This document shows, piece by piece, positions 14,005 through 44,771 of a stretch of DNA of 64,000 nt; position 1 is the stretch's first letter; each line of letters begins with the position of its first letter. The notes under the pieces are model-generated. The model worked only from the letters and a program-made list of their open reading frames with translations, had not been told where the DNA came from and searched no databases. Where the stretch lies: positions 18,566 through 82,565 of the forward strand of contig CAZBAS010000002.1 in the NCBI GenBank assembly GCA_964490395.1. Direction: 5' to 3'. Source of the DNA: an uncultured Candidatus Saccharibacteria bacterium (lineage in GTDB: Bacteria > Patescibacteriota > Doudnabacteria > UBA920). Position numbers and translations under genes: made by a program.

Positions 14005-15500
<1,496 letters not shown>

Positions 15501-19419: not shown

Positions 19420-19719
<300 letters not shown>

Positions 19720-24695: not shown

Positions 24696-26591
24696 TTATT
24701 TCTTCAAAATTGCTAAGAATGCTTCTTGTGGTATTTCCACTTTCCCAATTTTCTTCATGCGTTTTTTACCTTTTTTCTGTTTCTGTAGGAGCTTCATTTT
24801 ACGGGTAACGTCACCGCCATACAGGTAACCAGTTACGTCTTTACGCAGCGCGGAAATAGTTTCGCGTGCTATAACGCGGCCGCCAATGGCTGCTTGAATG
24901 GCTATTTCAAACTGTTGTCTTGGAATAAGCTCTTTAAGCTTCGTTACCAGCTCCCTACCTTCTACATCTGCCACAGAGCGGTGCATCATGGTGGAAAGCG
25001 CTTCCACTTTTTCATTCGCCACCAAAACATCTACTTTAACCAAATCTCCAGTGCGCAGTTCTAGAAAATCGTAGTTGAGCGAGGCATAGCCACTAGATAC
25101 GCTTTTTAGCTTATCGTAAAAATCTATAATAATGTTGCCGAGGGGCATTTCAAAATGCATATCCACGCGGTCTTCACCCAAATATTGTATGTCACCCGAT
25201 ATGCCACGACGTTTGGTAACAATATCTAATATAGGCCCTATGTAGTCAGATGGAGTAAGAATATTTACTTTCATCCATGGCTCCATAACCTGGGCTATAC
25301 TCGATGGATCGGGAAACTGCGCTGCGGACTGCACGGTAACTTCTTCACCCGAAGTTTTTATAACTTTAAACGCCACACTTGGTGCGGTTAAAATAAGGTC
25401 AAGATCGTACTCGCGGGTAAGACGCTCCTGCACTATATCCATGTGGAGCAGTCCTAAAAAGCCAGTGCGGAAACCAAACCCTATGCTTGGAATATGCTCA
25501 GGCTCAAACTCGAGCGAGGCGTCACTCAAGCGAAGTTTGTCCATGGCATCGCGAAGGTTTGGGTAATCATCACCTGAAACCGGAAAAATGGTCGCATACA
25601 CCATGGGCTTTACATGTTTGTACCCAGGCAATGCTTCGGTCTTAGCACGCTCGCTCAGTAGAGTTATAGTGTCACCCACACGAGCCTTAGAAACATCGCG
25701 GAGACCAGTGACTATATATCCCACCTCACCGCACTGAATGGCATCTGACTTTTCCATCTTTGGGTGGAAGTATCCCACTTCTAAACTTTCCGCTTCGGTT
25801 TTGCTCCCCAGGGTAAATATTTTTTGTCGGGGCAACAGTTTGCCATCAAAAATACGAACAAAACAAATTACACCGCGATGAATGTCGTATGCGGAATCAA
25901 AAATAAGCCCGCGCAGGTCGCCCGTTGGGTTTCCTTGTGGAGCAGGTACTCGCTCTACTATGGCGTCGAGTATGCCCAGAACACCCTCGCCGGTCTTACC
26001 CGATGCATACAAAATTTCATCGTCACTAAACCCAAACGCATCTTGCAGTTCTCGAGCGGTTTTTTCCCTGTCGCTATTTGGTAAGTCTATTTTATTAACA
26101 ACGGGAATAATTTTTAAATTATGTTCCAGCGCAAGATACGCGTTGGCTAATGTCTGCGCTTCTATGCCCTGTGTGCTGTCTACTACTAAAATTGCCCCTT
26201 CGCAGCAGGCAAGACTTCTCGAAACTTCATACGCAAAGTCCACGTGACCCGGAGTGTCTATCAAATTCAGAATATATTCTGAATTTGCAAATTTCAAATT
26301 CGAATCTTTAAATTCTAAAGGCTCTGAGCTGAGTGTTTTATTATTTTGTAAGTGGGATTCGTTTCGGATTTCGGATTTCGGATTTCGGTATTCATAGCTC
26401 ATGCGCGCTGGTTGAAGCTTGATGGTAATACCGCGCTCTCGCTCTAGGTCCATTTGGTCGAGTAGCTGGTCTTTCATTTCGCGCTTGCTCACGGTATGGG
26501 TCAACTCTAAAAGCCGGTCAGCCAATGTAGACTTACCGTGATCTATGTGAGCGATAATGCAAAAGTTGCGAATATTTTCTAAAGAAGACAT
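24696..26591 (-). CDS. lepA: Translation elongation factor 4 (LepA) with an in-frame low-complexity insertion of about 35 aa in the G domain.
   Basis: GHIDHGKST, DTPGHVDF, NKIDL and the conserved C-terminal LepA domain (YGGDVTRKMKLLQKQKKGKKRMK). The extra segment RNPKSEIRNESHLQNNKTLSSEPLEFKDSNLKFANSE lies between GITIK.. and NLIDTPGH and is encoded by the simple-repeat DNA at about 26270-26395. Confidence 0.9.
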   Translation of the reverse strand: MSSLENIRNFCIIAHIDHGKSTLADRLLELTHTVSKREMKDQLLDQMDLERERGITIKLQPARMSYEYRNPKSEIRNESHLQNNKTLSSEPLEFKDSNLKFANSEYILNLIDTPGHVDFAYEVSRSLACCEGAILVVDSTQGIEAQTLANAYLALEHNLKIIPVVNKIDLPNSDREKTARELQDAFGFSDDEILYASGKTGEGVLGILDAIVERVPAPQGNPTGDLRGLIFDSAYDIHRGVICFVRIFDGKLLPRQKIFTLGSKTEAESLEVGYFHPKMEKSDAIQCGEVGYIVTGLRDVSKARVGDTITLLSERAKTEALPGYKHVKPMVYATIFPVSGDDYPNLRDAMDKLRLSDASLEFEPEHIPSIGFGFRTGFLGLLHMDIVQERLTREYDLDLILTAPSVAFKVIKTSGEEVTVQSAAQFPDPSSIAQVMEPWMKVNILTPSDYIGPILDIVTKRRGISGDIQYLGEDRVDMHFEMPLGNIIIDFYDKLKSVSSGYASLNYDFLELRTGDLVKVDVLVANEKVEALSTMMHRSVADVEGRELVTKLKELIPRQQFEIAIQAAIGGRVIARETISALRKDVTGYLYGGDVTRKMKLLQKQKKGKKRMKKIGKVEIPQEAFLAILKK

Positions 26592-26715: not shown

Positions 26716-28371
26716 CTATTCTACCAATTTTAAGGCTTTTCCGCAAGCTCTTAAGACTTTTCTGATAATGCGTTCAAACAATTCCGCATCGGAAAGTTTC
26801 ACTGCTTTAGCCACCCCCACGTACACGAGCACCCCCGCGCCGCCAGACACACCCGCCTGCACCACAAGCCCAAGCCATGTGTGCGTATCTACCAAAGGCT
26901 CCACTGCATACAAGGCGCCGTATATGGTGAACGCGCATGCCAGTGTGGCGCTTAAAATTTTCCAGACCTCGCGAACCAACATATACTCTTCACGCGCGAG
27001 TACAACACCTTTGTCCGCACCGTCGCCCAAAAGCTCGGGCCTGAGCCAGGCATATAGCACTATCGCATTAAAGGTCATGCCCGCAGCATACCCAGCAGCA
27101 ACACCACTAATGCCATAGGTGGGCACACACAAAAGCGCCACCACAACAGTCACCAGAATAGAAAGAATATTACCAACCACAGGCGCCCACGTATTATGGC
27201 GCGCCAGGAGGGCCCGAGCGAATAATGGCACGAGTGATTGCCCTACCAAAGAAAACGTAAGTACTCCAAGCACTGCAAACGTTGCTCTGGTATCTTCCCA
27301 GCTAAACTGACCTGCACCATACAGTATACGGACTGCATGAGCGCGAAGCAGCAGCAGGGATACCGCTATGGGCAACATAAAAAACAATATGCGTACAATT
27401 GCCTGCCTTAATAGTAATGTGAACGCAGCTAAATCTTTTTTAGAATAGTGGTCAGATAGATGCGGGAATGTTGCTGTTGCTACGGCTATTGCAAATACCC
27501 CCACGGGCACGGCTTGTATATCGAACCCAAGAGAAAACACGGCAATACTACCCGCGGTAAGTAAAGAACCAAAAATGGATGCAAGTAATAAACTTACCTG
27601 AGAGAGATCCAACGTAAACAACCGAGGAACGTACAACTTAAGAATTGCCACCATGCCAGTATCAAAACTAAATACGGGCATAAAGCGAAACCCTGCCAAA
27701 TACAAATCCACAAGTTGGGTTATTACATGCGCAGTAGCACCTAAAATGACCCCGTAGCCTAGGCCGGCCAGGCCAAAGTGGGGGTAGAGCCAGACCACAC
27801 CTACTATGAGACCAAGATTGTAAGTAATGGGCGCAAAGCCCGCCCAAAAAAACCTCTTCACTGCATTGAGTGCGGTTGCAGCAACGTTTCCTACGGAAAG
27901 CAACACTTGCGCTATAAGAATAATCCGCGTAAGACTTGCCACTTCCCTGCTTGCTTCTGGACTAAACCCGGGAACCACAATGTGTACGAGCCATGGCGCA
28001 AGTAACGCAGCCAAACCGCAAAGCACTGCCATACACACGAACGTAATGTTCAGCAAGTTTGCCACGAGTCTCCGACCTTGGGTTTCATCTTCAAGTAAAT
28101 ACTGGGATATAATGGGCAACGCCGCAATGGACAAGGTACCCACTATAAGCACCCCCATAAGAAAGTCTGGGATGCGAAACGCCGCATAGTAGGTATCGAG
28201 CAGCTGGCCTGCGCCGAAGTGACTCGCAAATATGCGGATGCGCAAAAGCCCCACCACCCGTGAGGCAAGCGTAAGCACCGCAACAATAAAGGAAGACCAC
28301 CCAACTGTTGCGTAGACGGCAGATGTTGCAGAGGCTTTTATTTTGTTGTTACCAGCGCTGGATGGTTGCAC
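26716..28371 (-). CDS. murJ: Lipid II flippase MurJ (MviN family).
   Basis: 14-TM MOP-superfamily pattern; conserved N-terminal RIRIFASHFGAG and internal motifs; 551 aa. Confidence 0.8.
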   Translation of the reverse strand: MQPSSAGNNKIKASATSAVYATVGWSSFIVAVLTLASRVVGLLRIRIFASHFGAGQLLDTYYAAFRIPDFLMGVLIVGTLSIAALPIISQYLLEDETQGRRLVANLLNITFVCMAVLCGLAALLAPWLVHIVVPGFSPEASREVASLTRIILIAQVLLSVGNVAATALNAVKRFFWAGFAPITYNLGLIVGVVWLYPHFGLAGLGYGVILGATAHVITQLVDLYLAGFRFMPVFSFDTGMVAILKLYVPRLFTLDLSQVSLLLASIFGSLLTAGSIAVFSLGFDIQAVPVGVFAIAVATATFPHLSDHYSKKDLAAFTLLLRQAIVRILFFMLPIAVSLLLLRAHAVRILYGAGQFSWEDTRATFAVLGVLTFSLVGQSLVPLFARALLARHNTWAPVVGNILSILVTVVVALLCVPTYGISGVAAGYAAGMTFNAIVLYAWLRPELLGDGADKGVVLAREEYMLVREVWKILSATLACAFTIYGALYAVEPLVDTHTWLGLVVQAGVSGGAGVLVYVGVAKAVKLSDAELFERIIRKVLRACGKALKLVE

Positions 28372-28470
28372 AAATAAATTTCTAATTTTTAATTTTCAAT
28401 TTTTAATTACAATACACTCAAGTAAGCACTGGGCCGATTTTGAAAATTGTAAAATTAAAAATTGAAAATT
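28372..28470. repeat. AT-rich inverted repeat with a stem of about 24 bp at the DUF4012/murJ junction.
   Basis: AATTTTCAATTTTTAATTACAAT ... ATTGTAAAATTAAAAATTGAAAATT; the arms are reverse complements with one indel and the loop is about 32 nt. Confidence 0.65.
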
Positions 28471-30693
28471 CTACTGGGCTTGCATCACTGTTCCAAAAAA
28501 CCTATCTCTATCTATGTCTAACTCTTTAGTCAGCGAATGACCCGCCGCAGTACTGTCGGTTGCCCAGACAATAGTTCGACCTGGTGCGTCTACTCCATAG
28601 CTGAGCACATACGGGTTTGCTCCTGCTTGCTTTTGTACTGCAAGGCTTACCCGGTCAAGAGCCTCAATGGTAAATGGCAGTTCGTAGACAATTTCTAGTG
28701 TCTGACGCTGACCCCCCTCTAAGTTCACCCAATTACCAAAAAACGTTTTACCGGCTTCTTGCCCCACAAGCATACCACTTGCTACTTCTTTAACTGTGTG
28801 CGATTCCCACTCTGCTACTTTTGGATGCGGCTCTGCAGTAGTCCCATATTTTACATCTAAATCCATGTAAGAGAAACCCTTGCTACTTATGAGCTTGCTG
28901 CCCTCTGGCACGTAAATACGCATGAAGTCTTTATTTTCCAAACCTTTCACGTGTGGCAGGGGGTTACTTCTTACTATGGTCAGAGTGTTCGTGAGCACGC
29001 CAGTACTGGAAACAGCGGTCTTAAGCTGCACGCTTTGGCTCATGGCAAGGTCGGTTTTTGTACCACCCAAATTGGTAGAAACAATGCTTAGGTAGTCGCG
29101 AGCTGTATCCACCAAACGACCATCCCAGGAAAGACTGCGGAGCTTTTCTGCAAGCACGCCGTCACGCGCGTACATTTGTATATCTTTAGAGGCAAAAGAT
29201 TTCTGCAAACTCAGTAACACCGAAGGCATGTCTTCTTTGGGAAAAGACGCGAGCTTATTTAGAAAGATAGGAAAGAACTCCGACAACATTTTTTTGGGTT
29301 TATTCTCTTCCTTGTCGTACTGGAGCGATGTTTCTACTTGGGTTACTTCTATGAAATTATCTGCATCCAGAGGCGTGGTATACCCAGGCACGCTTATAGG
29401 GCCAGTTAACTTGAGCAAGTTTGTTGCGAGTTGCGGAGTAATGGCTACGACCACATCGGGCGTTACATGCGCCTCTTCTTCGTAGAACGTGCTCAAGACT
29501 TCCGCAGACTCAGGAAAAGACGCGAACCAGTTGCTATCACGCATATACCACCGGTTATTTACCGCAAACAGTGGGAGGGGTGGAGTATATTTAGATACAA
29601 GCTGCCCGTCTAAATCGTATATGCTACTAATAGTTTGCTTTACTATGGTGCCGTTTTCTACATCAAACGCCCCATAGGTTCCAGGGAACCCACCCGAGGG
29701 CCTAAGCTCATTGCTATTCTGAAGCAGCACCAGAATGTGCTTATGACCGCTCGACAACGCAACTATTACGTCGAGCGCGCTTCCCACCGTTTCTAGTGAG
29801 CCATCGAGGAGCAACAACTCAGTACGAGCTTGCTCAAATTTTTGCCTCGCCCCTTCGGGCACGTGTGCGCTATTTACTTTGCTGCTGCTCGTTGCTGCTT
29901 CGTGAATAGCTTGGCGAACTGCGGCGAACTCCGCCTGCACGCCTACAATGCTTTCACCCCCATTGTCTGCATGAAAACCAGTGGCGTCCATGTGCAGCGC
30001 CTTAAGCGCTGCAAATAATTTTGTTAAGTGTACTGCCGCTTCGCTTCCCGCGCTACCCGCACGCAATAAATTTTGCGCGTCTTTCCCCGCAGGAAGCACG
30101 CTTGCGGTTGCCTGTATAAGCACATTCGTATCCCCTACTAGCTTTTGGCTGTCTTGAAACGAACGAAGTGCAAGCTCGAATTTACTTTGCGCTTCTTCCA
30201 AATTTTCGCTCGCCAGTTTATCTTTCCCTTGCTCAAGCTTACTCACTGCATTGGTTGCTTGCCCTAGCACCCGGCCTTTTATGTGAAGGCCTTCAGCAAG
30301 CAAGGTACCCACGGAGACAAGCGCGAAGCACGACACCGATACTGCAAAAAAGAGCGCCAGGCCATAGGCAAATTGTGCCTGCCCTGCCCGTGCGCGCATG
30401 CGCGGAATATGTCCAAATGTTTGCGCAATGTCACGCAAAAATAAATGCCACACATATACCAAAGCGCGGGCAATTGTTTTTGGGGGCCAAAGCACAGCAA
30501 GTCCTGCTGCGTGGCACACGGTACTCACGAGCCACACAAGCCCGCCGCCAATGCTCAGCAATGCAAGGCCAATAGCATACGGCAACCAGAGCACTGCATG
30601 CACCATACGCACAAAAAAACTGCGCTGCTGTTTAGGAGCAGTACTTTGCAGCCGTATCTGAATTTCTCTATTTTTTTTGGCTAAAAGATGCAT
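28471..30693 (-). CDS. DUF4012 domain-containing membrane-anchored protein.
   Basis: N-terminal TM segments followed by a large extracytoplasmic domain containing the DUF4012 signature ...NSNELRPSGGFPGTYG... Confidence 0.65.
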   Translation of the reverse strand: MHLLAKKNREIQIRLQSTAPKQQRSFFVRMVHAVLWLPYAIGLALLSIGGGLVWLVSTVCHAAGLAVLWPPKTIARALVYVWHLFLRDIAQTFGHIPRMRARAGQAQFAYGLALFFAVSVSCFALVSVGTLLAEGLHIKGRVLGQATNAVSKLEQGKDKLASENLEEAQSKFELALRSFQDSQKLVGDTNVLIQATASVLPAGKDAQNLLRAGSAGSEAAVHLTKLFAALKALHMDATGFHADNGGESIVGVQAEFAAVRQAIHEAATSSSKVNSAHVPEGARQKFEQARTELLLLDGSLETVGSALDVIVALSSGHKHILVLLQNSNELRPSGGFPGTYGAFDVENGTIVKQTISSIYDLDGQLVSKYTPPLPLFAVNNRWYMRDSNWFASFPESAEVLSTFYEEEAHVTPDVVVAITPQLATNLLKLTGPISVPGYTTPLDADNFIEVTQVETSLQYDKEENKPKKMLSEFFPIFLNKLASFPKEDMPSVLLSLQKSFASKDIQMYARDGVLAEKLRSLSWDGRLVDTARDYLSIVSTNLGGTKTDLAMSQSVQLKTAVSSTGVLTNTLTIVRSNPLPHVKGLENKDFMRIYVPEGSKLISSKGFSYMDLDVKYGTTAEPHPKVAEWESHTVKEVASGMLVGQEAGKTFFGNWVNLEGGQRQTLEIVYELPFTIEALDRVSLAVQKQAGANPYVLSYGVDAPGRTIVWATDSTAAGHSLTKELDIDRDRFFGTVMQAQ

Positions 30694-30884: not shown

Positions 30885-31035
30885 CTGTCATTCCCGTGCA
30901 GACTCGCCTCGCTGGAGCTATGGCGAAGCGGGCGGGAATCCAGTCGGCCTACCAGCCGACACGAGGATATGTAGAAATCAATCAATGCTCGCTTATGGAT
31001 GGGCTGGATTCCCGCATGCGCAAGAATAACAAACG
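30885..31035. repeat. GC-rich palindromic repeat element, copy 2 (homolog of 3222..3333, opposite orientation, with a 31-nt loop insertion).
   Basis: CTGTCATTCCCGTGCA[...]GCGGGAATCCAG, GTCGGCCTACCAGCCGAC, ...GGATTCCCGCATGCGCAAGAATAACA. It aligns arm by arm with the reverse complement of copy 1 and lies between the DUF4012 start and the ftsW stop. Confidence 0.6.
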
Positions 31036-31040
31036 CGATA

Positions 31041-32174
31041 TTACCCTTTCACCTGCTTGCTTACATTCAGAAGTATGCCAACTGCAGTAAGGTTTACTAT
31101 GAGCGCGCTACTGCCATAGCTAAAGAATGGGAGGGGTATACCAGTTAGTGGCAAGAGGCCAATGGTAGCACCTATGTTTATAATCACCTGCAGCGTAATC
31201 ATGGCAGTGAGGCCTGCGGCAAGGAGCCGACCAAACAAGTCAGGCGCATTGGCTGCCACTTGAAAACCACGAATAAAGAAAAAAGTGAATACTGCGAATA
31301 TACCCAGCACGCGAACAAGTCCAAGCTCTTCCGCCACTACCGCAAACACCGAGTCACCCAATACTTCGGGAAGATAGTTGTGTTTTTGTCTTGACTGGCC
31401 ATAGCCAAGGCCCCAGACACCACCAGAACCAACAGCCATAAGCGCTTGGCTTATTTGATACCCCGCACCCTTTGGGTCTAGCTCAGGGTTTAAAAAAGTA
31501 AACAAGCGAGCAGCGCGGTATGGCTCAAGTTTAATAAGCAACAACAGCAAACCTGCCCCAGCCACTATAAGACCAACAATCCATCTCCACGGCACCCCAG
31601 CAGCTATTATCATTACGAGCGCTGTACCCAAAAGAGCAATCATAGTACCAAAGTCTGGTTGCCATAAAATGAGTAACGCAAATAAACCTATAATCGCAAG
31701 CATTGGAAATACCCCGGACATAAAGTCATGCAAATGCTCCTTCCGACTTGCAGCCCAGGCAGCGCAGTAGACAATAATGGCTAGCTTGGCAAGTTCAGCA
31801 GGCTGAAAAAACAAAGGACCCACATGAATCCACCTGCTTGCCCCGCCAGCAGAAAAACCAATGCCTGGGAGTTTCACCATAACCAGCAGTATGAGTGACC
31901 CGCCAATAATATACGGCACTAACTTTTGCCACCAGTGATAGTCAATCTTGTAACAAATGTATAGAGAAAGGAGGCCAAGACCTGCACCTTGCAATACTTG
32001 GCTACGTAAAAAATGAGTAGTATTGCCAAACCGTTCCAGGGATTCAACCGTAGAAACTGAGTACAGCATTATAAGCCCAATAACCAAAAGCAGACCCGCC
32101 GAAGCTGCGAGCCATACATCTGCACTCCCGCCCTTTTTTACTATTCGTTTTTGTTTATTATATTCGTGAACCAT
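31041..32174 (-). CDS. ftsW: SEDS-family peptidoglycan glycosyltransferase FtsW.
   Basis: 10-TM SEDS pattern and conserved motifs; located directly downstream of murD, as in dcw clusters. Confidence 0.8.
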   Translation of the reverse strand: MVHEYNKQKRIVKKGGSADVWLAASAGLLLVIGLIMLYSVSTVESLERFGNTTHFLRSQVLQGAGLGLLSLYICYKIDYHWWQKLVPYIIGGSLILLVMVKLPGIGFSAGGASRWIHVGPLFFQPAELAKLAIIVYCAAWAASRKEHLHDFMSGVFPMLAIIGLFALLILWQPDFGTMIALLGTALVMIIAAGVPWRWIVGLIVAGAGLLLLLIKLEPYRAARLFTFLNPELDPKGAGYQISQALMAVGSGGVWGLGYGQSRQKHNYLPEVLGDSVFAVVAEELGLVRVLGIFAVFTFFFIRGFQVAANAPDLFGRLLAAGLTAMITLQVIINIGATIGLLPLTGIPLPFFSYGSSALIVNLTAVGILLNVSKQVKG

Positions 32175-32176
32175 GG

Positions 32177-33589
32177 TTATACGTATTTTTTAGCAGCATC
32201 CCTAAACAACTCCCCTCGTTCTTTGTAGTTTTTAAACATACCAAACGAAGCACAAGCAGGACTCAAGAGCACTACATCGCCGGGCTGTGCCAGCTCGTGA
32301 ACTTGGGCAAATATTTCTACCATATTTGTAGCACCTCGTTTTAATGCGCCACCATAGCCAGCCGTCTCAAGTGCGCGAGCAATGCGCTGAGCGGTAACAC
32401 CAATGAGTATTACCCCTCGCACGTGCCCACCAGATGCAATGCGCTCTGCAAGGGCAGTGAAATCTGAGTTCTTTTCAGACCCGCCCAAAATTAGAACGGT
32501 AGGAGCACTAAACGATTCCAGCGCAGCTATGGCACTCTCTGGCACAGTGGATATAGAGTCATTGTAAAATTGCACTTTGCCATACTCTCCTACATACTCA
32601 AGCCTATGCTCGAGCCCAGTAAATGCCACTACCGTCTTTTCAATAATTGACAAAGGCGCGCCGGCAATCTCTGCCGCAAGGCTAGCTGCGCATATGTTCT
32701 CTAAATTATGTGCGCCAGGAAGCAACCTTTCTCTTACACTAAATACACCATTCTCTGGTAGTCCCAGTATGTGCACCGATTCATCCTCAGCATACGCTCC
32801 ACGCTCCACTGTATGATATCTGCTAAATGAAAATTTTAGACCTTTACCCTGCGCCCCTATAGCCTGACTTGCCGGGTAATCATCTGAATAAATAGCGAAA
32901 TCACTTGTTCCCTGATACGCAACAATAGCGCTCTTCGCCCTATGATACTCGGCCAAGTCTGCATGGTGATCTAAGTGCTCCTGCGTGACCATGAGGCACA
33001 CACCTATATGTGGACTACGAGTAAGGTCTTGCAATTGAAAACTAGAAAGTTCAAAAACAACGATATCTACAGCAGTGAGCAGCGGTAATATATCCAAAGG
33101 ATCTTGCTTGCCAATGTTGCCAGTAACGAATATGCGAGTGCTTGTTTGTATAAGATTATTTTCGGCACGGGCGGAGCACGCAGCTTCTAAAATGCCCGCA
33201 ATAAGCGTGGCAGTTGTACCCTTCCCTTTAGTTCCGGTAATACCGATAATGGGCGCGGGGCAATGGTCGAAAAAGAATTTTGTTTGACTAGTTATAACAA
33301 TACCGTGCATCTCTGCTGCAACTAACGCAGGGTGCAACCTCCGCACGCCTGGACTTCGAAATAGCACCGTGCAGTCATCAAAGGACGATAAAACCTCACC
33401 AAAGCTGAATACAAAGCCATCCGCCTCAAGCGAAACCAACTCTGCTTCTGTGAATGCACTGCGGGCTTGCTCATCGTATACTCGCGCAGCAAGCCCATGC
33501 TGCTTTAAAAATCGAGCAACAGCCTGGCCCTCTTTACCAAATCCTACAATACCCACCCGGGCCTTTTTTAAATCTTCAACAGTAAGCAT
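32177..33589 (-). CDS. murD: UDP-N-acetylmuramoyl-L-alanine--D-glutamate ligase.
   Basis: Mur ligase motifs GITGTKGKGTT and DSISTVPESA...; 470 aa; context between mraY/aminoacylase and ftsW. Confidence 0.9.
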   Translation of the reverse strand: MLTVEDLKKARVGIVGFGKEGQAVARFLKQHGLAARVYDEQARSAFTEAELVSLEADGFVFSFGEVLSSFDDCTVLFRSPGVRRLHPALVAAEMHGIVITSQTKFFFDHCPAPIIGITGTKGKGTTATLIAGILEAACSARAENNLIQTSTRIFVTGNIGKQDPLDILPLLTAVDIVVFELSSFQLQDLTRSPHIGVCLMVTQEHLDHHADLAEYHRAKSAIVAYQGTSDFAIYSDDYPASQAIGAQGKGLKFSFSRYHTVERGAYAEDESVHILGLPENGVFSVRERLLPGAHNLENICAASLAAEIAGAPLSIIEKTVVAFTGLEHRLEYVGEYGKVQFYNDSISTVPESAIAALESFSAPTVLILGGSEKNSDFTALAERIASGGHVRGVILIGVTAQRIARALETAGYGGALKRGATNMVEIFAQVHELAQPGDVVLLSPACASFGMFKNYKERGELFRDAAKKYV

Positions 33590-33628
33590 AGTTGTCCTAT
33601 AACTAATTCAGAAAAACCGAAAGCAATA

Positions 33629-35206
33629 TTACACCTTCCTCAAAAATGTGCCGCTGCGGATGCCGGTGAGCTGACCTTCGGAGGCTGCGAGTGCACCATT
33701 TACCCAGACTTTGTGAATACCTTGCGGCGAACGGTATGGGTTTTGGATGGTTGCGCGGTCATGGGTATGGAGCGGGTCGAACAAGACTAAATCTGCAACC
33801 GAGCCCACACTCACCTGCCCGCGATCTGGCAAACCCCAAATACGCGCCGGCAAGCTAGTAAGCTTAGCGATTGCGGTTTCTAATGAAATTCGCTTGGAAC
33901 GTTTCATAAGCGAAATAAAGTTACTGGTAGTGCCAAAGCAGCGAGGATGTACTAGCTTGCTTACGTGTTGGCCCTGGTGGAGTAGCGGGAAGCCGCCACC
34001 ATCCGTAGCGACCACAGACAGCGGATGTGCGAGTAGCTCCTCTACCTGGTCTGCATGCAGGCAGTGGTCAAACACAAGCACTTCTGTGCCACCGTTTTTT
34101 AGCACCTCGAGCAGCGCTTCTTCACTAGACACGCCAAGGTTTTGGGCAATTTGTCCCATGGTTTTACTGACTACGCGCATATTGAAGCTCGTAGACGCCA
34201 CAATTAAGTCAGCAACAGGGTTTTGGCTTGCGTGTAAATGCGCTAAAACTTTTTTATACTGCGCAGGGTCGTTCAATATTGTAAGCATGGCGCTGCGTCC
34301 GCCACCTGTGGCCCATTTTGGTAAATAGGTGTAGAGTGGCTGCCACGTAGATGTATAGGGGTAGACATCAAAACTTACGTCCGCGCCCATATGTACTACA
34401 TTTTCTATGCGCGCTAGCACTTCGGAAAGCTGGCTCCAGTTTGTTTTGCCCCGAACTTTGAAGTGTGAAAGTTTAAGCCGAGAGCCAGACTTTTGCGCCA
34501 CCTCTAGCGCCTCTTCTACGCTTTCGGGCAAGCCTTCTGCTTCATTACGCAAATGCACCGAAAGCAGAGCATTGTACGCAGTAACAACTTTTGCAAGTTC
34601 GTACAGTTCAAGTTCACTTACTGCAAATTCATGCGCGTACGACAGCCCAGTAGAAAGCCCAAACGCCCCCGCCTGTAAACTTTCCTCCAATGCGCGGCCA
34701 AGTATTTCTACTTCCTCAGAACTTAAACTCCGTTGCTGGTCCCCTACCAGCCCGCGACGAAGCGTGCTTAATCCAACCAAGCTTCCCACATTGGTACCAA
34801 AATTCTGGCTACTGAGTGTATCTGCAAACTCTGCAAAACTAGACCAGTTAAAATTGCTACTGGTAAGGTCGTGCCATTTTTGTGAGGACTTAAGCGCGTT
34901 GCGAGACAGCAGTGGCGCAAGGCTGGTACCGCAATTACCTACCAAAACAGAAGTTATACCCTGAAGGACAAGGCTGTCGAGATTGGGAGAATCAAATAAA
35001 GACCAGTAGCTATCGCTATGGTTTTGTACATCTATAAACCCAGGAGCGAGCACTAACCCTTCTGCTTCTATTACCTCTTTTGCTTTAACCGGTATGTCTA
35101 GGGCTATGTCTATAATAATGCCATCGGTAATGCCAATATCGGCCACAAAGCTTTCCTGCCCTGTGCCATCTATTACTGTTGCTCGTTTTATTAAAAGATC
35201 GTACAT
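33629..35206 (-). CDS. Amidohydrolase-family N-acyl-D-amino-acid deacylase (D-aminoacylase)-like.
   Basis: Metal-dependent amidohydrolase motifs (GFIDVQNHSD..., ...HCLHAD...) and a length of 525 aa, consistent with the D-aminoacylase subfamily. Confidence 0.65.
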   Translation of the reverse strand: MYDLLIKRATVIDGTGQESFVADIGITDGIIIDIALDIPVKAKEVIEAEGLVLAPGFIDVQNHSDSYWSLFDSPNLDSLVLQGITSVLVGNCGTSLAPLLSRNALKSSQKWHDLTSSNFNWSSFAEFADTLSSQNFGTNVGSLVGLSTLRRGLVGDQQRSLSSEEVEILGRALEESLQAGAFGLSTGLSYAHEFAVSELELYELAKVVTAYNALLSVHLRNEAEGLPESVEEALEVAQKSGSRLKLSHFKVRGKTNWSQLSEVLARIENVVHMGADVSFDVYPYTSTWQPLYTYLPKWATGGGRSAMLTILNDPAQYKKVLAHLHASQNPVADLIVASTSFNMRVVSKTMGQIAQNLGVSSEEALLEVLKNGGTEVLVFDHCLHADQVEELLAHPLSVVATDGGGFPLLHQGQHVSKLVHPRCFGTTSNFISLMKRSKRISLETAIAKLTSLPARIWGLPDRGQVSVGSVADLVLFDPLHTHDRATIQNPYRSPQGIHKVWVNGALAASEGQLTGIRSGTFLRKV

Positions 35207-35338
35207 ATATATTTTTTGACGAATCTACGAATGAACAAATATTGCAAATGGCTACGAATCTGGGACCTAGATAACGTCGCGCATTCGTAGCAATTCGTTA
35301 TCATTCGTTCATCCGCAGATTCGTCAACATTCTCTTTA
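35207..35338. repeat. Nested AT-rich inverted repeat built from ACGAAT/ATTCGT units (GACGAATCTACGAATGAACAAAT ... ATTCGTTCATCCGCAGATTCGTC; inner GCTACGAAT/ATTCGTAGC).
   Basis: Direct read of the sequence; the same unit type occurs at 26592..26715 and 13907..14004. Confidence 0.6.
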
Positions 35339-36376
35339 TTACCCTAAGAAATATACAATTATACCAATTATGGCCAACACGGAGGCAAATATCCAAGCGC
35401 GCATAGTCACTTTTGTTTCAGGCCAGCCCAGCGCTTCAAAGTGATGGTGAATGGGAGCAGAGAGAAATATTTTTTTCTTAAATACTTTTTTGGAAAATAT
35501 TTGGAGCACGGTTGTAACTGCTTCCAAGACAAAGACAAAACCAATTATAGGAAGCAGTGCTATGGAGTTAGTAAGGAATGCGACTATGGCAAGGAGTACC
35601 CCCAGCCCCATGGACCCTGTATCCCCCATAAAAAACCGCGCCGGGTATACATTGAACCACAAAAATGCAAGCAAACTTCCTGCCACCACGCCAATGAGTG
35701 CAGCTAAATTCTCTTGCCCGCGCACATACGCTATAAGCCCAAAGGCAAAAAACGCTATAAGTAGCGTACCACCGGCAAGCCCGTCCAGTCCGTCTGTTTG
35801 GTTTACGGCAAAGCTTGTGGCTATAACAACCAGTATGAAAAATGGGATAAACACCCAGCCAAGGTGTAGCGAACCTGCAAATGGTATGTGTACTGCCTCG
35901 AAACCCAGTTTAAAATAAAACCACCATGCACCTATAGCAGCAACAATGGCGTACAAAATAACTTTGAAGCGAAACGGAAACCCGCGCCCCTGGTGACCCA
36001 TGCGGTTTATATCAAGGAGGTCATCGGCAAGGCCTACCACTGCAGCACCCACAAAGGCGCCCAAAGGGAGCAAAGTTTCGCGACGGGTAAGAATGTTGAG
36101 GTTATGAAAAACATCAAGCCCGACTACTCTATCTAAAAACCAAAACGCAGAAATAATAACGCAGGTAATACCCCACACGAGGAGGCCGCCCATGGTCGGA
36201 GTCCCCTTTTTTGCAGCATGCATTTTGGTAAAGAGCGGAGTTTCTTTGGAATCGCGAATGTTTTTACCCAGCTTATATTTATAGAGGAAATACGTTAGCA
36301 GCGGCGTTGTGCCAAGCGCTAAGATGAACGAAATAGAAGTAAGTGAAAATATCTTTGTCAGTACCAAATCTGTCAT
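35339..36376 (-). CDS. mraY: Phospho-N-acetylmuramoyl-pentapeptide transferase.
   Basis: MraY signature motifs (DDLLDIN..., ...VNQTDGLDGLAGG..., FMGDTGS) and 10 TM helices. Confidence 0.9.
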   Translation of the reverse strand: MTDLVLTKIFSLTSISFILALGTTPLLTYFLYKYKLGKNIRDSKETPLFTKMHAAKKGTPTMGGLLVWGITCVIISAFWFLDRVVGLDVFHNLNILTRRETLLPLGAFVGAAVVGLADDLLDINRMGHQGRGFPFRFKVILYAIVAAIGAWWFYFKLGFEAVHIPFAGSLHLGWVFIPFFILVVIATSFAVNQTDGLDGLAGGTLLIAFFAFGLIAYVRGQENLAALIGVVAGSLLAFLWFNVYPARFFMGDTGSMGLGVLLAIVAFLTNSIALLPIIGFVFVLEAVTTVLQIFSKKVFKKKIFLSAPIHHHFEALGWPETKVTMRAWIFASVLAIIGIIVYFLG

Positions 36377-36387
36377 ATATTCTCTTT

Positions 36388-36425
36388 TTCTCCCCCTCCT
36401 TTCTAGGGAGGGGTTAGGGGAGGTG
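36388..36425. repeat. Half copy of the RPE-like hairpin element in the mraY 5' leader.
   Basis: CCCCTCC-TTTCTAG-GGAGGGG-TTAGGGGAGG matches copy B's CCCCTCCTAGAATAGGAGGGGTTAAGGGCGG. In the mraY orientation it supplies a GGAGGGGG SD-like sequence about 18 nt upstream of the ATG. Confidence 0.55.
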
Positions 36426-36634
36426 AAATGTAGAATTTATAATAAATACGGACCTTCGCAACTGCAATTGAGGAATACCTAAATCAATCTTCTCAGAAAT
36501 AACTGTATTAATTATACCACAAACCTTGAAATTCCCCGCTAAACCTGCTAAAGTAACCAGTCGCAAACAAAACCACCCCCATAAAAACCAACCGCGGCCC
36601 CGCCGCACATCCGCTCCCTAAAAAGGAGCAGCCA

Positions 36635-37321
36635 ATGGAGGCAACACCGATGAAACGACTTTCTACACTAGTAATGCTCGCGCTCGGCTTTTGCTACTTT
36701 TTAATTTGTGGCCAATCCGTCCTGGCGCAGGATGGGATCACCGCAAAATTCGAAACCACGAACGGTAAAGAGCACGCCACATATGCAATTGGAAGTTGTA
36801 TTGTGAGCGCTAGCGGCAACCCGCCAGTATGGTCAATTCAGAACAAACAATCCAGCTCAGTCCAGAAGGACTGCGATGCGTTGTTCGAAAACTTACCCGA
36901 CCATGTCAGCGAACAACTGCGCAACCGTATCCCAAAACAGGTCCCCTTGCCTATTACAGGTGTGCTTGCAGCCGTGTTCCAATACGATGAGTTATCGTTT
37001 CGTTGGCTGCACAACACAGCCGACAAACATCTGCTGGACGCTTTTCTACTAACCTCCACAGACGGACAGGCAAGAAAATCCACCCTGGGCATGGAGCAGC
37101 GGTACAATACCGCCGAAACAGCCCTGAATGCAAACTCGTGGCACCAAGTAAAGATTCTCAAAGTAGAGATCGAGGGTGCGACTGCCACGGTAACAACGAG
37201 CGAAACATTTTATTGGGAATCGAACATACGGGTTCGAGACCACAAAGAAAACCAGCAACAAGTGTATAAGCTGGTTTTCAAGAACGGATTCTGGCTCGTT
37301 GATTACAACGCGCCAGTCTAA
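36635..37321 (+). CDS. Secreted hypothetical protein.
   Basis: AAGGAG SD 7 nt upstream of the ATG; signal peptide (MKRLSTLVMLALGFCYFLICGQSVLAQ); no family recognised. Hairpin plus T-run at about 37330-37400. Confidence 0.55.
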   Translation: MEATPMKRLSTLVMLALGFCYFLICGQSVLAQDGITAKFETTNGKEHATYAIGSCIVSASGNPPVWSIQNKQSSSVQKDCDALFENLPDHVSEQLRNRIPKQVPLPITGVLAAVFQYDELSFRWLHNTADKHLLDAFLLTSTDGQARKSTLGMEQRYNTAETALNANSWHQVKILKVEIEGATATVTTSETFYWESNIRVRDHKENQQQVYKLVFKNGFWLVDYNAPV

Positions 37322-37502
37322 AGTCGAAACCGCCCCGCCTCAGATATCACTAGCATACGCTACATATCTGTCCGCGGGGTTTATCTTTTTTATATTGTAT
37401 GATTGACCGCTCCCCTTTTTTAATGCATAATCCTTAGTTGCCACGGCGCAACTCGCAATTATCAAAACGTAATTTAACCATTTCTAAGCCGAAGGAGGGC
37501 CC

Positions 37503-38271: not shown

Positions 38272-38934
38272 CTATAATAACTTCTTTTGTTTAAAAAATC
38301 GAAGAAGTCTTTCTTTATCCTGAACGTCTAATCTTATAATTTCCATTACAGTGACGAAGTGTGCTACATGATACTGGATAGCAATGTGCCCCAACTCTTT
38401 TCTGGGATCGAACGGATGGATCCATAATGTACGTTGCAAAGAATAGAATTGCAATTCACGCAGTTTGGCTCGAAGCATATCTGCGCCAGCTCGATATTCC
38501 CTCGTAGGTATGTCTGCAGCCACCAACCACCAGGTGCCAGCCCAATGCGCGGGTTTAGTAATTTGATAAATTCCCTTGTTCAAATCGCGGAGACGACCTT
38601 GCCCCTTCTCGGTCAAACGTGCAAGTAACTTGCCTCCTTTTTCTTCAATAATAATTTGTCCTGACTGTTTTAAGTAATATACCGCCCTTACTAACTTTTG
38701 TGCCTGCTCTGAATGTCGTAACGGTCTCTTGTATCTACGTCGCAAAAAAGGCGCTAAAACCTTAAGTGTATTCGGAGCTGTTAACAGCATCCCCACAGCA
38801 CCCGCCATTCCTGCAATGATCAAAACATTCATTGCCACAGTTTTAACGCGCTCAGAAGTAAGCAGGGCCTCAAGATTTTGCAGTGAATCTCCGGGGGCTT
38901 TTCGCACCTGCTTTGTTATAGGCATCCGAACCAT
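38272..38934 (-). CDS. PaaX-family-like winged-helix transcriptional regulator (short form, 220 aa), paralog 1.
   Basis: wHTH region (VRAVYYLKQSGQIIIEEKGGKLLARLTEKGQ) and a PaaX-type central domain (WAGTWWLVAADIPTRE...LRELQFYSLQRTLWIHPF; compare E. coli PaaX WDGKWLLLLSEGLD...GFGALAPSL, from memory). Similar to 44770..45294. Confidence 0.5.
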   Translation of the reverse strand: MVRMPITKQVRKAPGDSLQNLEALLTSERVKTVAMNVLIIAGMAGAVGMLLTAPNTLKVLAPFLRRRYKRPLRHSEQAQKLVRAVYYLKQSGQIIIEEKGGKLLARLTEKGQGRLRDLNKGIYQITKPAHWAGTWWLVAADIPTREYRAGADMLRAKLRELQFYSLQRTLWIHPFDPRKELGHIAIQYHVAHFVTVMEIIRLDVQDKERLLRFFKQKKLL

Positions 38935-39059: not shown

Positions 39060-39548
39060 TTATCGTGTAAGGGCAAGGATACTGTTACCAATTATAGGCT
39101 CGGCCGTAGGAGCAAACACCGTAATGCGGCCATTGGCGTCTTGGAATAGACGGTAGCCGGTGGTATAGGTGGTGCCGTTCCAACTCGTTCCGTTGCTCGG
39201 GTCTACTGGTAGTTCAGAAATGTATGACGGTACCAAACACGAACGCAGGTCTAGCTCGCCGGTGCCGTTACCAATAATACTTCCCGCTGTCCCGGTAGCC
39301 ACTGTGCCGGTTGGAAAGGTAATCCCAGCACAATTAAACTGCCCTTTATTCTCTGCTATGCGCTGGCCTACACTATTGAGCAGTGCGTTCAAATCGCTCG
39401 ACCGCTGCGTATTGCGCATATTTGCAAATTGCCGCGCCGGGTTAACAGCTATAAGTACTATCGCGGCAAGCGCCGCAAGCAAACCTATAGAGACCAAAAT
39501 TTCAATGAGCGTAAAACCATTTTGAGTAGAAACGTGAGAACTTTGCAT
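39060..39548 (-). CDS. Type IV major pilin (prepilin with N-terminal cleavage/methylation domain).
   Basis: Leader plus QNGFTLIEILVSIGLLAALAAIVLIA (class III signal with G-F-T-L-I-E) followed by a variable C-terminal domain containing Cys; 162 aa. Confidence 0.75.
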   Translation of the reverse strand: MQSSHVSTQNGFTLIEILVSIGLLAALAAIVLIAVNPARQFANMRNTQRSSDLNALLNSVGQRIAENKGQFNCAGITFPTGTVATGTAGSIIGNGTGELDLRSCLVPSYISELPVDPSNGTSWNGTTYTTGYRLFQDANGRITVFAPTAEPIIGNSILALTR

Positions 39549-39578
39549 ATACTTCGTTTTTTAATTTTAATTAGTTTT

Positions 39579-39616
39579 ATGTTCGCAATTTAAGCGGCCG
39601 CTTAAATTGCGAACAT
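39579..39616. promoter_or_regulatory. 38-nt perfect palindrome in the pilin promoter region.
   Basis: ATGTTCGCAATTTAAGC-GGCCGC-TTAAATTGCGAACAT, 31 nt upstream of the pilin ATG. It has the same GCGGCCGC centre as the palindrome at 45308..45349. Confidence 0.7.
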
Positions 39617-39644
39617 GAGGATGCGTTACGGGAAGATTCTGTAT

Positions 39645-40079
39645 TTAGGGAGGTTCTGACTCCATGGTTACGGTAAAATTTGCTTGATCCAAGTTCGCGA
39701 GAAGATTTGTCTCCGCGCCTACCACCGCAGCATGAGTGCGAACTTCCCACGTGCCGCCTGTATTTTGCACACTTACTATGTCGCATGAATTATCTTCTAC
39801 CGCTATCGAGCGTGCACTTGGGTACACAGAAGCTTTCAACTGTAGGACAGCCAGACGAACACAACTATCGGCAAGAGTATAGCTTTGTTCTTTTGCCCAG
39901 GCCTGCAGCGAGCTTTGTCCGCTATTCCACACAACGAGCGCATGGCTGGATATAAGCATGCTCACTATGGCCGACATAAGTATTACACAGATGAGTGCAA
40001 TATACCCTTCGTCAAAGTGAGTGCTATTTGGCTTAAGGGAAAAAGATGTGCCTATGTATATTTTCATTATCAACTCCAA
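39645..40079 (-). CDS. Putative minor pilin/pilus assembly protein (PilX-like N-terminal hydrophobic segment).
   Basis: N-terminal hydrophobic helix (YIALICVILMSAIVSMLISSHALVVW) in the pilus gene cluster. The prepilin motif is degenerate. Confidence 0.35.
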   Translation of the reverse strand: MELIMKIYIGTSFSLKPNSTHFDEGYIALICVILMSAIVSMLISSHALVVWNSGQSSLQAWAKEQSYTLADSCVRLAVLQLKASVYPSARSIAVEDNSCDIVSVQNTGGTWEVRTHAAVVGAETNLLANLDQANFTVTMESEPP

Positions 40080-40500
40080 TAGTAACTATTAATTCTCTAT
40101 TCGGTTCACTGTACGTAAACGCTGGCATTCCTTGCGTTAACTGAGTTAGGTGTGTGGGAAGCAAGTCTACCGCACCACTGCCTGCATACGAAAGGGTCAG
40201 CATAGTATGCTCTATGCGAATATTCACCGGAGAGCCAATTCCTATATGCACATTTGTAAATACAACGCCGTCAGGAGTGGTTACAATAGACTGTGCCCCC
40301 GTGCCGAGCCAGCGTAATTTTGCTATTACAAAATCCACATCCTCTTGCGTACGAATATCTGCGCTCGTCTTATCCATGTTTCCCATAAGGCCAAATAGTG
40401 CTGCCCACGAGCCCACACACAGAACCGACAACAGTCCAACATATACAATTATTTCTAGGAGCGTAAACCCGGTCGCACAGGGAGACCTCTTATGAATCAT
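40033..40500 (-). CDS. Type IV pilus pseudopilin (minor pilin).
   Basis: ATGFTLLEIIVYVGLLSVL prepilin N-terminal methylation motif; 155 aa. Confidence 0.65.
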   Translation of the reverse strand: MIHKRSPCATGFTLLEIIVYVGLLSVLCVGSWAALFGLMGNMDKTSADIRTQEDVDFVIAKLRWLGTGAQSIVTTPDGVVFTNVHIGIGSPVNIRIEHTMLTLSYAGSGAVDLLPTHLTQLTQGMPAFTYSEPNRELIVTIGVDNENIHRHIFFP

Positions 40501-40510
40501 GGATATATAC

Positions 40511-41932
40511 TTAGTTACTTATCAAAGATATGCCGCTGCCATGGGGCGCAAAAACCACATTGTCCTGATAGTCCACTCTTCCGCTATTTGCAATGATGTT
40601 TGACGTACTACACGAGGTAACAGTAGCTATTTCCGTAACCGAACATACCAAAAGTGGCGCAGTAGTATCGGAAGTAGTCATAATGAGTGTGGCGTTACTA
40701 ACTACAAAACCATTTACTACACTGCCAGACTTAAGCTTTGCGTTATACGAAGAGAGAAACACTGGGTGCTGGGGGTCAGTTACGGACAACGCAATCACTG
40801 TAGGCTCCCCTGTTACTTGCTGTCTTGCAATCCACATAATGTTTCCCGCGGCAAATAGCGCGGTTGCGCTACCACTCCCCTGGGCGTCGAACAAAGAAAA
40901 ATCTGTAATGTGTGTTGCATCGGTAACATTCAACACTTGCAGTTCTGAATTGTTTGCCGAAGATGCAATGTACGCCAGAAGCTTTAGACTGCCGCCCACA
41001 ACCTCTTCCCGCACAACTATGGTACGTACGCTATGGTTTACGGCCCTACTACCTAAAAAAACTGGGCTCAAAGGATTGCTTACATCAAATATATAAAACT
41101 CTGAGCCAGCAGTTTCATACGTGCCAATATAGGCGCGGTTTCGAAATACAAAAATACTTCTCCCTTCCGGAAAGGAGCCAGATGCGCTCGGCAAACTGCG
41201 TGAAGCAACCAGCACTGGATGGGCCGGAGTGGATACATCAACAACTTGAAATTGTAATGTACTACTATTCTGGACTGCATACGCATAGGACCCGGCAACA
41301 TCAACTGCAAATAAACCACTGCCTGTATGTAAACTAGAGAGTACCTGCAAAGAAGATGGAATGGTTGTGTCAATGACAAATAAATCTGCGTCCGCAGCTT
41401 GAGAACTTGTCCCCACCGCAACTGCCAGTCGTGCGGAATTTCTTTCCACCACATCAACACCATGTATTTGAAGTCTCGTGGGACCGAGTGGAACTGTGCC
41501 CACAATGTGTGCGCTACTCCAGCCTCCTACCAACCCCACCACTGGACAATCGTAGCCGCTCTCCTCCACCGACTGCGTACTCGTTACTGTAGTTGCTATC
41601 TCGGCAGAAGCAGGATGCGGCATGCTCCAGCCCACACGGGATACCGCTGTAGCCGTGCATAACGTGGACACATGGAGTGCCCTCTCCATGGTAAATGGCG
41701 CATGTGCCAATACCGCTGGCGGAACCCCTTGGAGCGGACCAGTATACGCGCGAACCCGCGCTGCATCACCGCTCAATATATCTCGTGCTTCAGTAGCCAA
41801 ATGTCTCGCCGCCACTGCATCTTGCAAACCAAACACCATTCGCGCAGATGCCGCAAGCACTGTTGCCATAACAGCTAAGGCCACCAGAAATTCAATGCTT
41901 AAACTACCATATTGTGACCCCATGTGTTTCAC
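40511..41932 (-). CDS. Large pseudopilin-like protein (473 aa) with a beta-rich C-terminal domain; candidate pilus tip/adhesin subunit.
   Basis: N-terminal GSLSIEFLVALAVMATVLAA (G...E at +5) prepilin-like helix followed by a long Ser/Thr/Val-rich domain. Confidence 0.45.
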   Translation of the reverse strand: MKHMGSQYGSLSIEFLVALAVMATVLAASARMVFGLQDAVAARHLATEARDILSGDAARVRAYTGPLQGVPPAVLAHAPFTMERALHVSTLCTATAVSRVGWSMPHPASAEIATTVTSTQSVEESGYDCPVVGLVGGWSSAHIVGTVPLGPTRLQIHGVDVVERNSARLAVAVGTSSQAADADLFVIDTTIPSSLQVLSSLHTGSGLFAVDVAGSYAYAVQNSSTLQFQVVDVSTPAHPVLVASRSLPSASGSFPEGRSIFVFRNRAYIGTYETAGSEFYIFDVSNPLSPVFLGSRAVNHSVRTIVVREEVVGGSLKLLAYIASSANNSELQVLNVTDATHITDFSLFDAQGSGSATALFAAGNIMWIARQQVTGEPTVIALSVTDPQHPVFLSSYNAKLKSGSVVNGFVVSNATLIMTTSDTTAPLLVCSVTEIATVTSCSTSNIIANSGRVDYQDNVVFAPHGSGISLISN

Positions 41933-44731: not shown

Positions 44732-44771
44732 AAATACAACGTTTTTCGTGGCCACGAAAAACGTTGTATTT
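44732..44771. promoter_or_regulatory. 40-nt perfect palindrome overlapping the stop codon of the PaaX-like paralog 2.
   Basis: AAATACAACGTTTTTCGTGG|CCACGAAAAACGTTGTATTT. Confidence 0.7.

Follow-up and report, generated by a model that had tools for sequence, protein, structure and literature searches.

The division and cell wall (dcw) cluster is among the most conserved bacterial gene orders, and the locus described here raises the question of what an additional gene is doing in its centre. The locus lies in a 64,000-nucleotide (nt) stretch of Doudnabacteria DNA (assembly GCA_964490395.1, contig CAZBAS010000002.1, positions 18,566 to 82,565), referred to in its full length as the window, in which a gene for an amidohydrolase of 525 amino acids (aa) is situated between mraY and murD. 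In Escherichia coli K-12, the arrangement is murF-mraY-murD-ftsW, with no gene between mraY and murD, which agrees with the canonical order mraY-murD-ftsW from which a preliminary description of the window had started. That description proposed that the amidohydrolase supplies or recycles D-glutamate (D-Glu) for peptidoglycan synthesis in an organism that may lack the glutamate racemase MurI. Our analysis indicated that the link between the amidohydrolase and the D-Glu step is real, and that the absence of a racemase does not account for it.

The amidohydrolase gene in the dcw cluster

The preliminary description had placed the 525-aa amidohydrolase between mraY and murD on the same strand, and the open reading frames (ORFs) were recovered there, correct to the base (Table 1). 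The genes for MraY, the amidohydrolase, MurD, FtsW, a DUF4012 protein, MurJ and LepA follow one another in the same direction on the minus strand. Spacers of 132 nt and 39 nt separate the amidohydrolase gene from mraY and murD, respectively, and the gap between the murD stop codon and ftsW is only 2 nt. A pattern scan of species-representative genomes yielded at least 563 stretches encoding a relative of the amidohydrolase, of which 80 loci were kept; these are from Candidatus Doudnabacteria or Patescibacteria metagenome-assembled genomes (MAGs), with the exception of one mislabelled contig. The order mraY-amidohydrolase-murD-ftsW-DUF4012-murJ-lepA was found in every sufficiently long locus among the approximately 80 that were fetched, except for two loci with murL and murD2, and a window-like order was also found in four close relatives. 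The median spacers in the Doudnabacteria loci are 12 nt (mraY/amidohydrolase) and 2 nt (amidohydrolase/murD), and many of these junctions overlap by 1 or 4 nt. Toxin-antitoxin pairs, a pilin and a giant surface protein occur as occasional accessory insertions in the block. Judging from the co-directional adjacency and the operon-like spacing, we consider the amidohydrolase gene to be a component of the dcw operon, which is probably co-expressed with mraY and murD. A chance arrangement or assembly artefact was rejected because the same order recurs in the approximately 80 loci and the four close relatives, and a recent horizontal insertion was rejected because the G+C content of the amidohydrolase gene resembles that of its neighbours and the synteny is ancient. 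One 3.3-kb contig labelled as an Acidobacteriaceae MAG (L069, JBLMZH010000068.1) carries a Doudnabacteria-type amidohydrolase-murD-ftsW segment, which is probably a case of bin contamination.

An exhaustive search of 1.84 billion representatives retrieved a continuum of full-length (~525 aa) relatives, with scores from 656 down to 277 bits. Among the non-Doudnabacteria loci that were fetched, 51 have wall genes adjoining the amidohydrolase gene (X in the gene orders given here), and the named members of this clade include Moranbacteria, Sungbacteria and Parcubacteria-group MAGs. The arrangements in these loci include S11-mraY-X-ftsW-murG; S11-mraY-murI-X-pgeF-murD-ftsW-murG-murC (L094 and L180); S11-mraY-murI-X-pgeF-murL::murD2-ftsW-murG (L179); mraY-murL-murD2-X-ftsW (L102 and L104); X-murL, in some cases followed by murD2 (L106, L127 and L128); and mraY-X-dnaG (L097). 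Additionally, there are bare X-murD pairs with unrelated genes upstream (encoding glyceraldehyde-3-phosphate dehydrogenase, RNase III or an M50 protease), and about a dozen loci have mraY-X-ftsW-murG without a nearby murD. These variant arrangements always keep a dcw or D-Glu-step neighbour of X. In a neighbour-joining tree, which is crude, the 65 dcw-context proteins formed a single clade apart from 30 canonical relatives without wall genes nearby. We found no paper in which this clade, its synteny in the dcw cluster or its degenerate centre is described; the clade, which is specific to Patescibacteria and fixed in the dcw cluster of many ultra-small members of that group, is a previously undescribed branch of a known enzyme family, and not a new type of system. 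A search for Rosetta-stone fusions among the 150 best representatives detected none to MraY or Mur ligases and only tandem amidohydrolase duplications. Two of these, P0125 (1077 aa) and P0132 (955 aa), could be either true fusions or merged gene calls.

The hairpin that occupies the mraY/amidohydrolase spacer of the window has its arms at 35216-35240 and 35303-35327 (inverted repeat I11), contains ACGAAT-like repeats, and folds as RNA with an energy of -59.6 kcal/mol (z = -8.2). It is kept in L090, absent in L004, where the spacer is 45 nt, and different in L086. The possibility that it is a terminator isolating the amidohydrolase gene, which the preliminary description had named as evidence that would count against its proposal, was rejected: no U-tract follows the hairpin and similar hairpins occur inside the ATP synthase operon, so we do not take it to mark a limit of the operon. 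A scan of positions 31000-37500 against Rfam gave no match. An extended -10 motif, TGGTATAAT, is located ~135 nt upstream of mraY (~36519-36511), and the counts of promoter-like and terminator-like matches were no higher than in shuffled controls. Long hairpins fill many co-directional spacers of the window (35216-35327, 28377-28470, 24261-24321, 19659-19718 and 19331-19410; further examples at 15419-15497, 13351-13438, 12631-12738, 4010-4080 and 59955-60048), and their arms consist of short degenerate tandem motifs (ACGAAT.., CTAATnT.., ACAAAT..). These hairpins could be RNA-processing or stability elements, or repeats resembling repetitive extragenic palindromic elements.

Family, metal centre and carboxylate site of the amidohydrolase

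In a phmmer search for solved relatives of the amidohydrolase, the eight distinct PDB sequences of the D-aminoacylase family ranked best, including 9g5m (E = 1.4e-61), 1m7j (1.2e-60), OngB 9kb1 (4.9e-58) and 3gip (1.7e-57), whereas dihydroorotase, hydantoinase and allantoinase reached only ~1e-7. The AlphaFold2 model had a predicted local distance difference test score of 86.9. In Foldseek, it matched 9g5m, 1v4y, 1m7j, 3gip and 9kb1 with template modelling (TM) scores of 0.81-0.83 (query) and 0.88-0.91 (target) and E ~4e-45, and the next family after the D-acylases was allantoinase at 2e-21. The D-aminoacylase type that had been assigned from the sequence was thus confirmed both by the PDB sequence matches and by the fold (query/target TM up to 0.83/0.91), and the model places the protein in subtype V of the amidohydrolase superfamily, with a predicted beta-sandwich, a (beta/alpha)8 barrel and a mobile alpha/beta insertion. 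No NCBIfam model reached its cut-off for this protein, and its relatives are publicly annotated as "amidohydrolase family protein," "D-aminoacylase" or "N-acyl-D-amino-acid deacylase." An exact look-up gave no record of a protein identical to that of the window. Neither a signal peptide nor a membrane segment was seen at the N-terminus, and we therefore infer that the protein is cytoplasmic. OngB, a GlcNAc1A de-N-acetylase, is as similar to the window protein as the other solved members, with a TM score of 0.83, and shows that the family can act on N-acetyl carboxylates that are not amino acids; it differs in belonging to an oxidative chitin catabolic pathway, no gene of which occurs near the window amidohydrolase.

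Solved D-acylases have a Cys-bridged metal centre in which the beta-metal is bound by Cys96, His220 and His250 and the alpha-metal by His67, His69 and Asp366 (AfaDacyl numbering); Asp366 is the general base, and the substrate carboxylate is held by a Tyr of the YPY motif, an Arg and a Lys (PMC12149444). The beta-metal activates these enzymes and the alpha-metal attenuates them (PMC12149444; title of 1v4y). The window protein shares their three-part fold at 27-29% identity, and its beta-site is complete, with C92 (in GNCG), H218 and H248 aligned to Cys96, His220 and His250. It also keeps the general base D402, Y190 and the carboxylate site (c-site), which consists of K250, Y282 and R422. The HxH motif of the alpha-site is not kept and reads Q61-N62-H63. 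Given these opposite effects of the two metals, activity can be reconciled with the loss of the His from the alpha-site.

We compared these positions across the clade. Across 182 distinct sequences from Doudnabacteria, position 61 is always Gln and never His, the c-site residues K250, Y282 and R422 do not vary either, and 142 of the sequences have the catalytic pattern of the window. In the remaining 40, D402 has given way to Asn or Ser; C92 is Ser or Ala as well in 39 of these, and 7 are without H218 too. Of the dcw-context proteins from other lineages, 51 in number, 46 have lost the first His of HxH (Thr, Asn, Leu, Gln or Ser), some have Arg, Gln or Ala as the second, 19 have another residue for the catalytic Asp (Asn, Ser, Ala or Gly), and only two have a fully canonical centre; the canonical relatives outside the dcw context have HHCHHD in 30 of 30 cases. 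The c-site persists as K-(Y/F/S)-R in 50 of these 51 proteins, the single exception having Arg for Lys250. Judging from these residues, the metal centre of the dcw-embedded clade is degenerate.

The degenerate copies remain under selection. In close relatives, the synonymous sites of the amidohydrolase gene are saturated and the nonsynonymous divergence (dN) is 0.06-0.10. The ratio of dN to synonymous divergence (dS) was 0.08 for the Asp-less pair L103/L107 (THCHHN), 0.07 for the Asp-less pair L120/L122 (NQCHHN), and 0.03, with dS >2, for L004 and L090, which are lineages with MurD2/MurL. The Asp-less copies are functional proteins and not decaying genes. Between a fifth and a third of the clade has lost the Asp while purifying selection persists, which is hard to reconcile with a purely hydrolytic role, and deacylation cannot be the function that is conserved across the clade.

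Other positions distinguish the dcw clade from its canonical relatives. Residues specific to the clade are K/R110 (98%), W111 (98%) and Y292, as well as R151 (90% vs. 0% of canonical relatives), R/K304 (82% vs. 0%) and H192 (84% vs. 0%, the canonical residue being Pro). Furthermore, profile positions 287-332, which follow the YPY motif, form a helical insert of ~45 residues where the residue of the side-chain pocket (r-site) sits in the solved enzymes. The loop bearing K110 and W111 was modelled with low confidence, which is consistent with a mobile lid. The window clade therefore differs from the solved D-aminoacylases in the Gln at the first HxH position, in this insert and in K110, W111, R151, H192 and R304, and also in being fixed in the dcw operon with many members lacking the Asp or the Cys.

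The D-Glu step and the role of the amidohydrolase

A Pfam scan of all ORFs in the 64-kb window detected no murI or D-amino-acid transaminase (Aminotran_4) gene. A tblastn search with E. coli MurI gave no match in 1.45 Mb of Doudnabacteria loci, a result that carries no information given that only ~1.6 would be expected by chance placement. In a database search with a Patescibacteria MurI, no Doudnabacteria label appeared among the best 120 matches, in which about nine close clusters were followed by Chloroflexota proteins at ~40% identity. In six relatives, murI lies directly beside the amidohydrolase gene (L094, L130, L100, L101, L179 and L180), and the MurI encoded there is typical: it has the motifs DSGVGG, ACNTA and GCTH and matches E. 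coli MurI with 101 bits. The association is therefore independent of racemase absence, and the premise that the organism lacks a racemase fails as a general explanation. What stands of the proposed D-Glu supply or recycling is the operon embedding of the gene and its repeated adjacency to murD, murI or murL-murD2; the argument from a missing murI does not. The murI-amidohydrolase-pgeF (Cu-oxidase_4) block between mraY and murD is conserved in one lineage, at L094:7209-10306, L179:7001-10086 and L180:7001-10115.

The ligase of the D-Glu step also varies among near relatives. In a 2021 review, the MurD2/MurL pathway is listed only for Xanthomonadales, a few Alphaproteobacteria and Micromonosporaceae. 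We found this route, in which L-Glu is ligated and then epimerised, in Patescibacteria (L004, L090, L179, L102, L104, L106, L127 and L128), far beyond its reported range and swapped with the canonical murD between near relatives. The amidohydrolase of L086, which is 84% identical to that of the window, is accompanied by a canonical murD, and those of L004 and L090, which are 91% and 89% identical, are accompanied by murL and a MurD2-like ligase in place of murD. Signature residues separate MurD2 from MurD (PMC8788868): at the positions of E. coli K348 and A414, Lys and Ala are present in the window MurD, and Arg and Pro both in MurD2 and in the MurD2-like ligase of L004 and L090. The window MurD is 47% identical to the MurD of L001 and 29% identical to the L004 ligase. 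In some loci, the two proteins are fused into one MurL::MurD2 chain of 839 aa, and the four signature positions of the L179 fusion are occupied by Glu, Arg, Pro and Tyr. The pathway as described in Xanthomonas consists of two enzymes without an amidohydrolase (PMC8788868); its genes neighbour the amidohydrolase gene in L004, L090 and L179 (murL/murD2 at L004:11609-14175, L090:4268-6835 and L179:10083-12602), and the window has the canonical murD. The exchange makes the D-Glu step of these organisms directly testable.

Some observations on the ligases were made in addition. The window MurD has Glu at the position of E. coli D182 and Ile at that of K319. It is 71% identical to the MurD of L086 (4610-6022), compared with 84-95% for the flanking mraY, amidohydrolase and ftsW products, and the D-Glu ligase therefore evolves faster or has been swapped more often than its neighbours. 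The murI of L179 stands alongside the MurL::MurD2 fusion, which is unexpected if MurD2/MurL organisms are without a racemase.

The low dN/dS of the L004/L090 amidohydrolase means that selection on the gene is kept where L-Glu is ligated and epimerised in place, which argues against D-Glu supply as its function. The situation in L179 softens this argument, because salvaged D-Glu could in principle be racemised there.

Based on these results, we tentatively suggest, as a reading that is plausible but short of probable, that the amidohydrolase is a cytoplasmic handler (an editor or a binder) of the N-acyl-D-Glu end of UDP-N-acetylmuramoyl (UDP-MurNAc) peptides. We infer this ligand because the carboxylate site is kept, basic residues have been added and the neighbourhood is constant. 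The gene would be expressed from the mraY promoter along with mraY, murD and ftsW. The pocket of the clade would grip the free alpha-carboxylate of an N-acylated D-amino acid through K250, Y282 and R422. The inhibitory alpha-metal His has been lost (Gln61 in the window), and the basic or aromatic residues K110, W111, R151, H192 and R/K304 have been gained together with the helical insert at the r-site; the ligand would be the N-acyl-D-Glu end arising from the MurD (or MurD2 plus MurL) step. With its intact beta-site and D402, the window protein is probably a mononuclear zinc amidase, which would cleave off the residue at position 2 of precursors that are aberrant or in surplus, or of muropeptide fragments that have been scavenged. 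In orthologues with Asn or Ser for the Asp, which in Doudnabacteria have usually lost the Cys as well, the same pocket would bind without cleaving. The suggested role resembles that of PgeF (YfiH), a cytoplasmic proofreading amidase that removes mis-ligated residues from UDP-MurNAc-peptides (PMC12280929). The pgeF gene is directly downstream of the amidohydrolase gene in L094, L179 and L180, but PgeF has an unrelated fold (Cu-oxidase_4) and works at position 1 (L-Ser or Gly).

Several points weigh against this suggestion. A role in which hydrolysis matters sits poorly with the loss of the Asp in 20-37% of members, and a role in binding only sits poorly with the strict C/H/H/D set that most Doudnabacteria keep. 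The ligand is a putative one, drawn from context and residue conservation; profile positions 287-332 align to no solved D-acylase, 3gip included, so that the D-Glu specificity is putative too. Cleaving the MurD product would be futile unless the enzyme discriminates, and such discrimination would be purely hypothetical. Finally, in the dozen or so loci without murD, the link could be to MraY or to the lipid-linked steps.

A non-catalytic partner, that is, a pseudoenzyme serving as scaffold, chaperone or regulator that binds the precursor, MraY, MurD or several of these, with metal ligands that are structural or ligand-binding only, would accommodate the swaps of the metal ligands. These swaps are isosteric (D to N, C to S, H to Q, N or R) and occur while the carboxylate site is kept and such variants are under strong purifying selection; the tight spacing to mraY and murD fits translational coupling, and the superfamily has non-catalytic members, the dihydropyrimidinase-related proteins (CRMPs) being among the weaker matches. 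We nevertheless consider it rather unlikely, as the window protein and 78% of the Doudnabacteria copies keep the full beta-site and the Asp over a saturated synonymous divergence, and the physical interaction is purely conjectural, with no fusion to MraY or a Mur ligase among the 150 best representatives. Salvage of D-Glu, in which hydrolysis of N-acyl-D-Glu or L-Ala-D-Glu from scavenged muropeptides would supply free D-Glu to MurD or, through MurI, to the L-Glu pool in lineages with MurD2/MurL, is the form in which the original proposal would survive. The family includes an N-acyl-D-Glu deacylase, Bb3285 of Bordetella bronchiseptica (3GIP/3GIQ), which has the family, the fold and the carboxylate-binding Lys and Arg in common with the window protein, and a D-Glu-type ligand would suit the gene context. 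Salvage is further favoured by the adjacency of murD in the window and most loci and of murI in six, the intact catalytic set of the window protein, and the lack of murI in the window, in the 1.45 Mb of Doudnabacteria loci and under any Doudnabacteria label in the top 120 matches to a MurI from Patescibacteria. However, a hydrolase without its chemistry should decay, and the Asp-less copies are under purifying selection; the gene is kept in the MurD2/MurL lineages and in the loci without an adjacent murD; and the clade-specific basic residues suggest a ligand larger and more anionic than a dipeptide. There is also no special affinity to Bb3285, which ranked seventh of the eight solved D-acylases by phmmer and last by profile search. 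Its specificity residue Arg295, which lies in the alpha/beta domain and pairs with the gamma-carboxylate of D-Glu, falls in the unalignable segment of the window protein, where R/K304 could play an Arg295-like role, and an assignment to EC 3.5.1.82 would thus be conjectural. Taken together, these points make salvage unlikely.

An enzyme of the D-Ala end would be a cytoplasmic DD-carboxypeptidase or dipeptidase, coupled to MraY; the molecule that it trims would be UDP-MurNAc-pentapeptide or D-Ala-D-Ala, each an N-acyl-D-Ala compound. In several clades, mraY and X stay paired even where murD is missing (L095, L097, L099 and others), a gene for an S11 DD-carboxypeptidase is often found upstream of mraY, and characterised D-acylases favour neutral D-amino acids (PMC12149444). 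Isolated X-murD pairs nevertheless exist without mraY, the gene adjoins murI and murL-murD2, and a basic residue at position 304 suits an acidic side chain better than a methyl group, so we regard this reading as very unlikely. Least credible of all, and disfavoured here, is a metabolic deacylase that merely hitch-hikes in the cluster without a wall role. It would agree with the labels given by public pipelines (D-aminoacylase or amidohydrolase) and with the non-wall contexts of the canonical relatives, but the synteny extends across hundreds of species in several gene orders, always with mraY, murD, murI, murL or ftsW.

If the protein does handle the D-Glu end of the precursors, a wider proposal can be formulated, which we put forward only as a rather doubtful one: it may be a previously unrecognised factor that assists the cytoplasmic synthesis of peptidoglycan in nearly all Patescibacteria of the Parcubacteria type, namely an enzyme or pseudoenzyme, derived from a D-aminoacylase, for proofreading or passing on position 2 (D-Glu) of UDP-MurNAc-peptides. 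It would then constitute a second precursor-editing or chaperoning system after PgeF, serving either D-Glu route (MurI plus MurD, or MurD2 plus MurL). To our knowledge, the steps of cytoplasmic peptidoglycan synthesis are regarded as fully enumerated, and we know of no editing factor for position 2. The clade provides a protein of the dcw cluster with a remodelled D-aminoacylase site that, judging from its residues, is often catalytically silenced.

Coordinates of the block and other features of the window

The coordinates of the block from mraY to lepA are summarized in Table 1.

Table 1. The conserved block around the amidohydrolase gene, in positions of the window.
Feature	Position	Strand	Evidence or remark
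mraY (phospho-MurNAc-pentapeptide transferase), first gene of the conserved block	35339..36376	minus	TIGR00445, 211.8 bits (cut-off 192); Glycos_transf_4
mraY-amidohydrolase spacer, 132 nt	35207..35338	minus	filled by a long near-perfect hairpin
amidohydrolase, 525 aa, D-aminoacylase fold	33629..35206	minus	Pfam Amidohydro_3 / Amidohydro_1
murD, canonical	32177..33589	minus	TIGR01087, 345 bits (cut-off 212)
ftsW (SEDS glycosyltransferase)	31041..32174	minus	TIGR02614, 356 bits (cut-off 337.5)
DUF4012 protein, conserved member of the Doudnabacteria block	28471..30693	minus	PF13196, 91.9 bits
murJ (lipid II flippase)	26716..28371	minus	TIGR01695, 238.6 bits (cut-off 235.55); position conserved
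lepA (EF4), final gene of the syntenic block	24696..26591	minus	TIGR01393, 880.8 bits; position conserved

Elsewhere in the window, three paralogous secreted proteins (4778-6346, 6662-7600 and 8955-10193) have a common N-terminal domain without a Pfam match, and two of them carry a polysaccharide deacetylase domain. Their genes adjoin those of a family-2 glycosyltransferase (10263-11603) and an NAD-dependent sugar epimerase/dehydratase (11596-12555). Two small ORFs with a GIY-YIG domain are located at 21763-22011 and 59651-59908. Two PaaX_M (Cas2-like) ORFs (38272-38934 and 44770-45294) flank a type IV pilus set with T2SSE, T2SSF and pilins (39060-44624).

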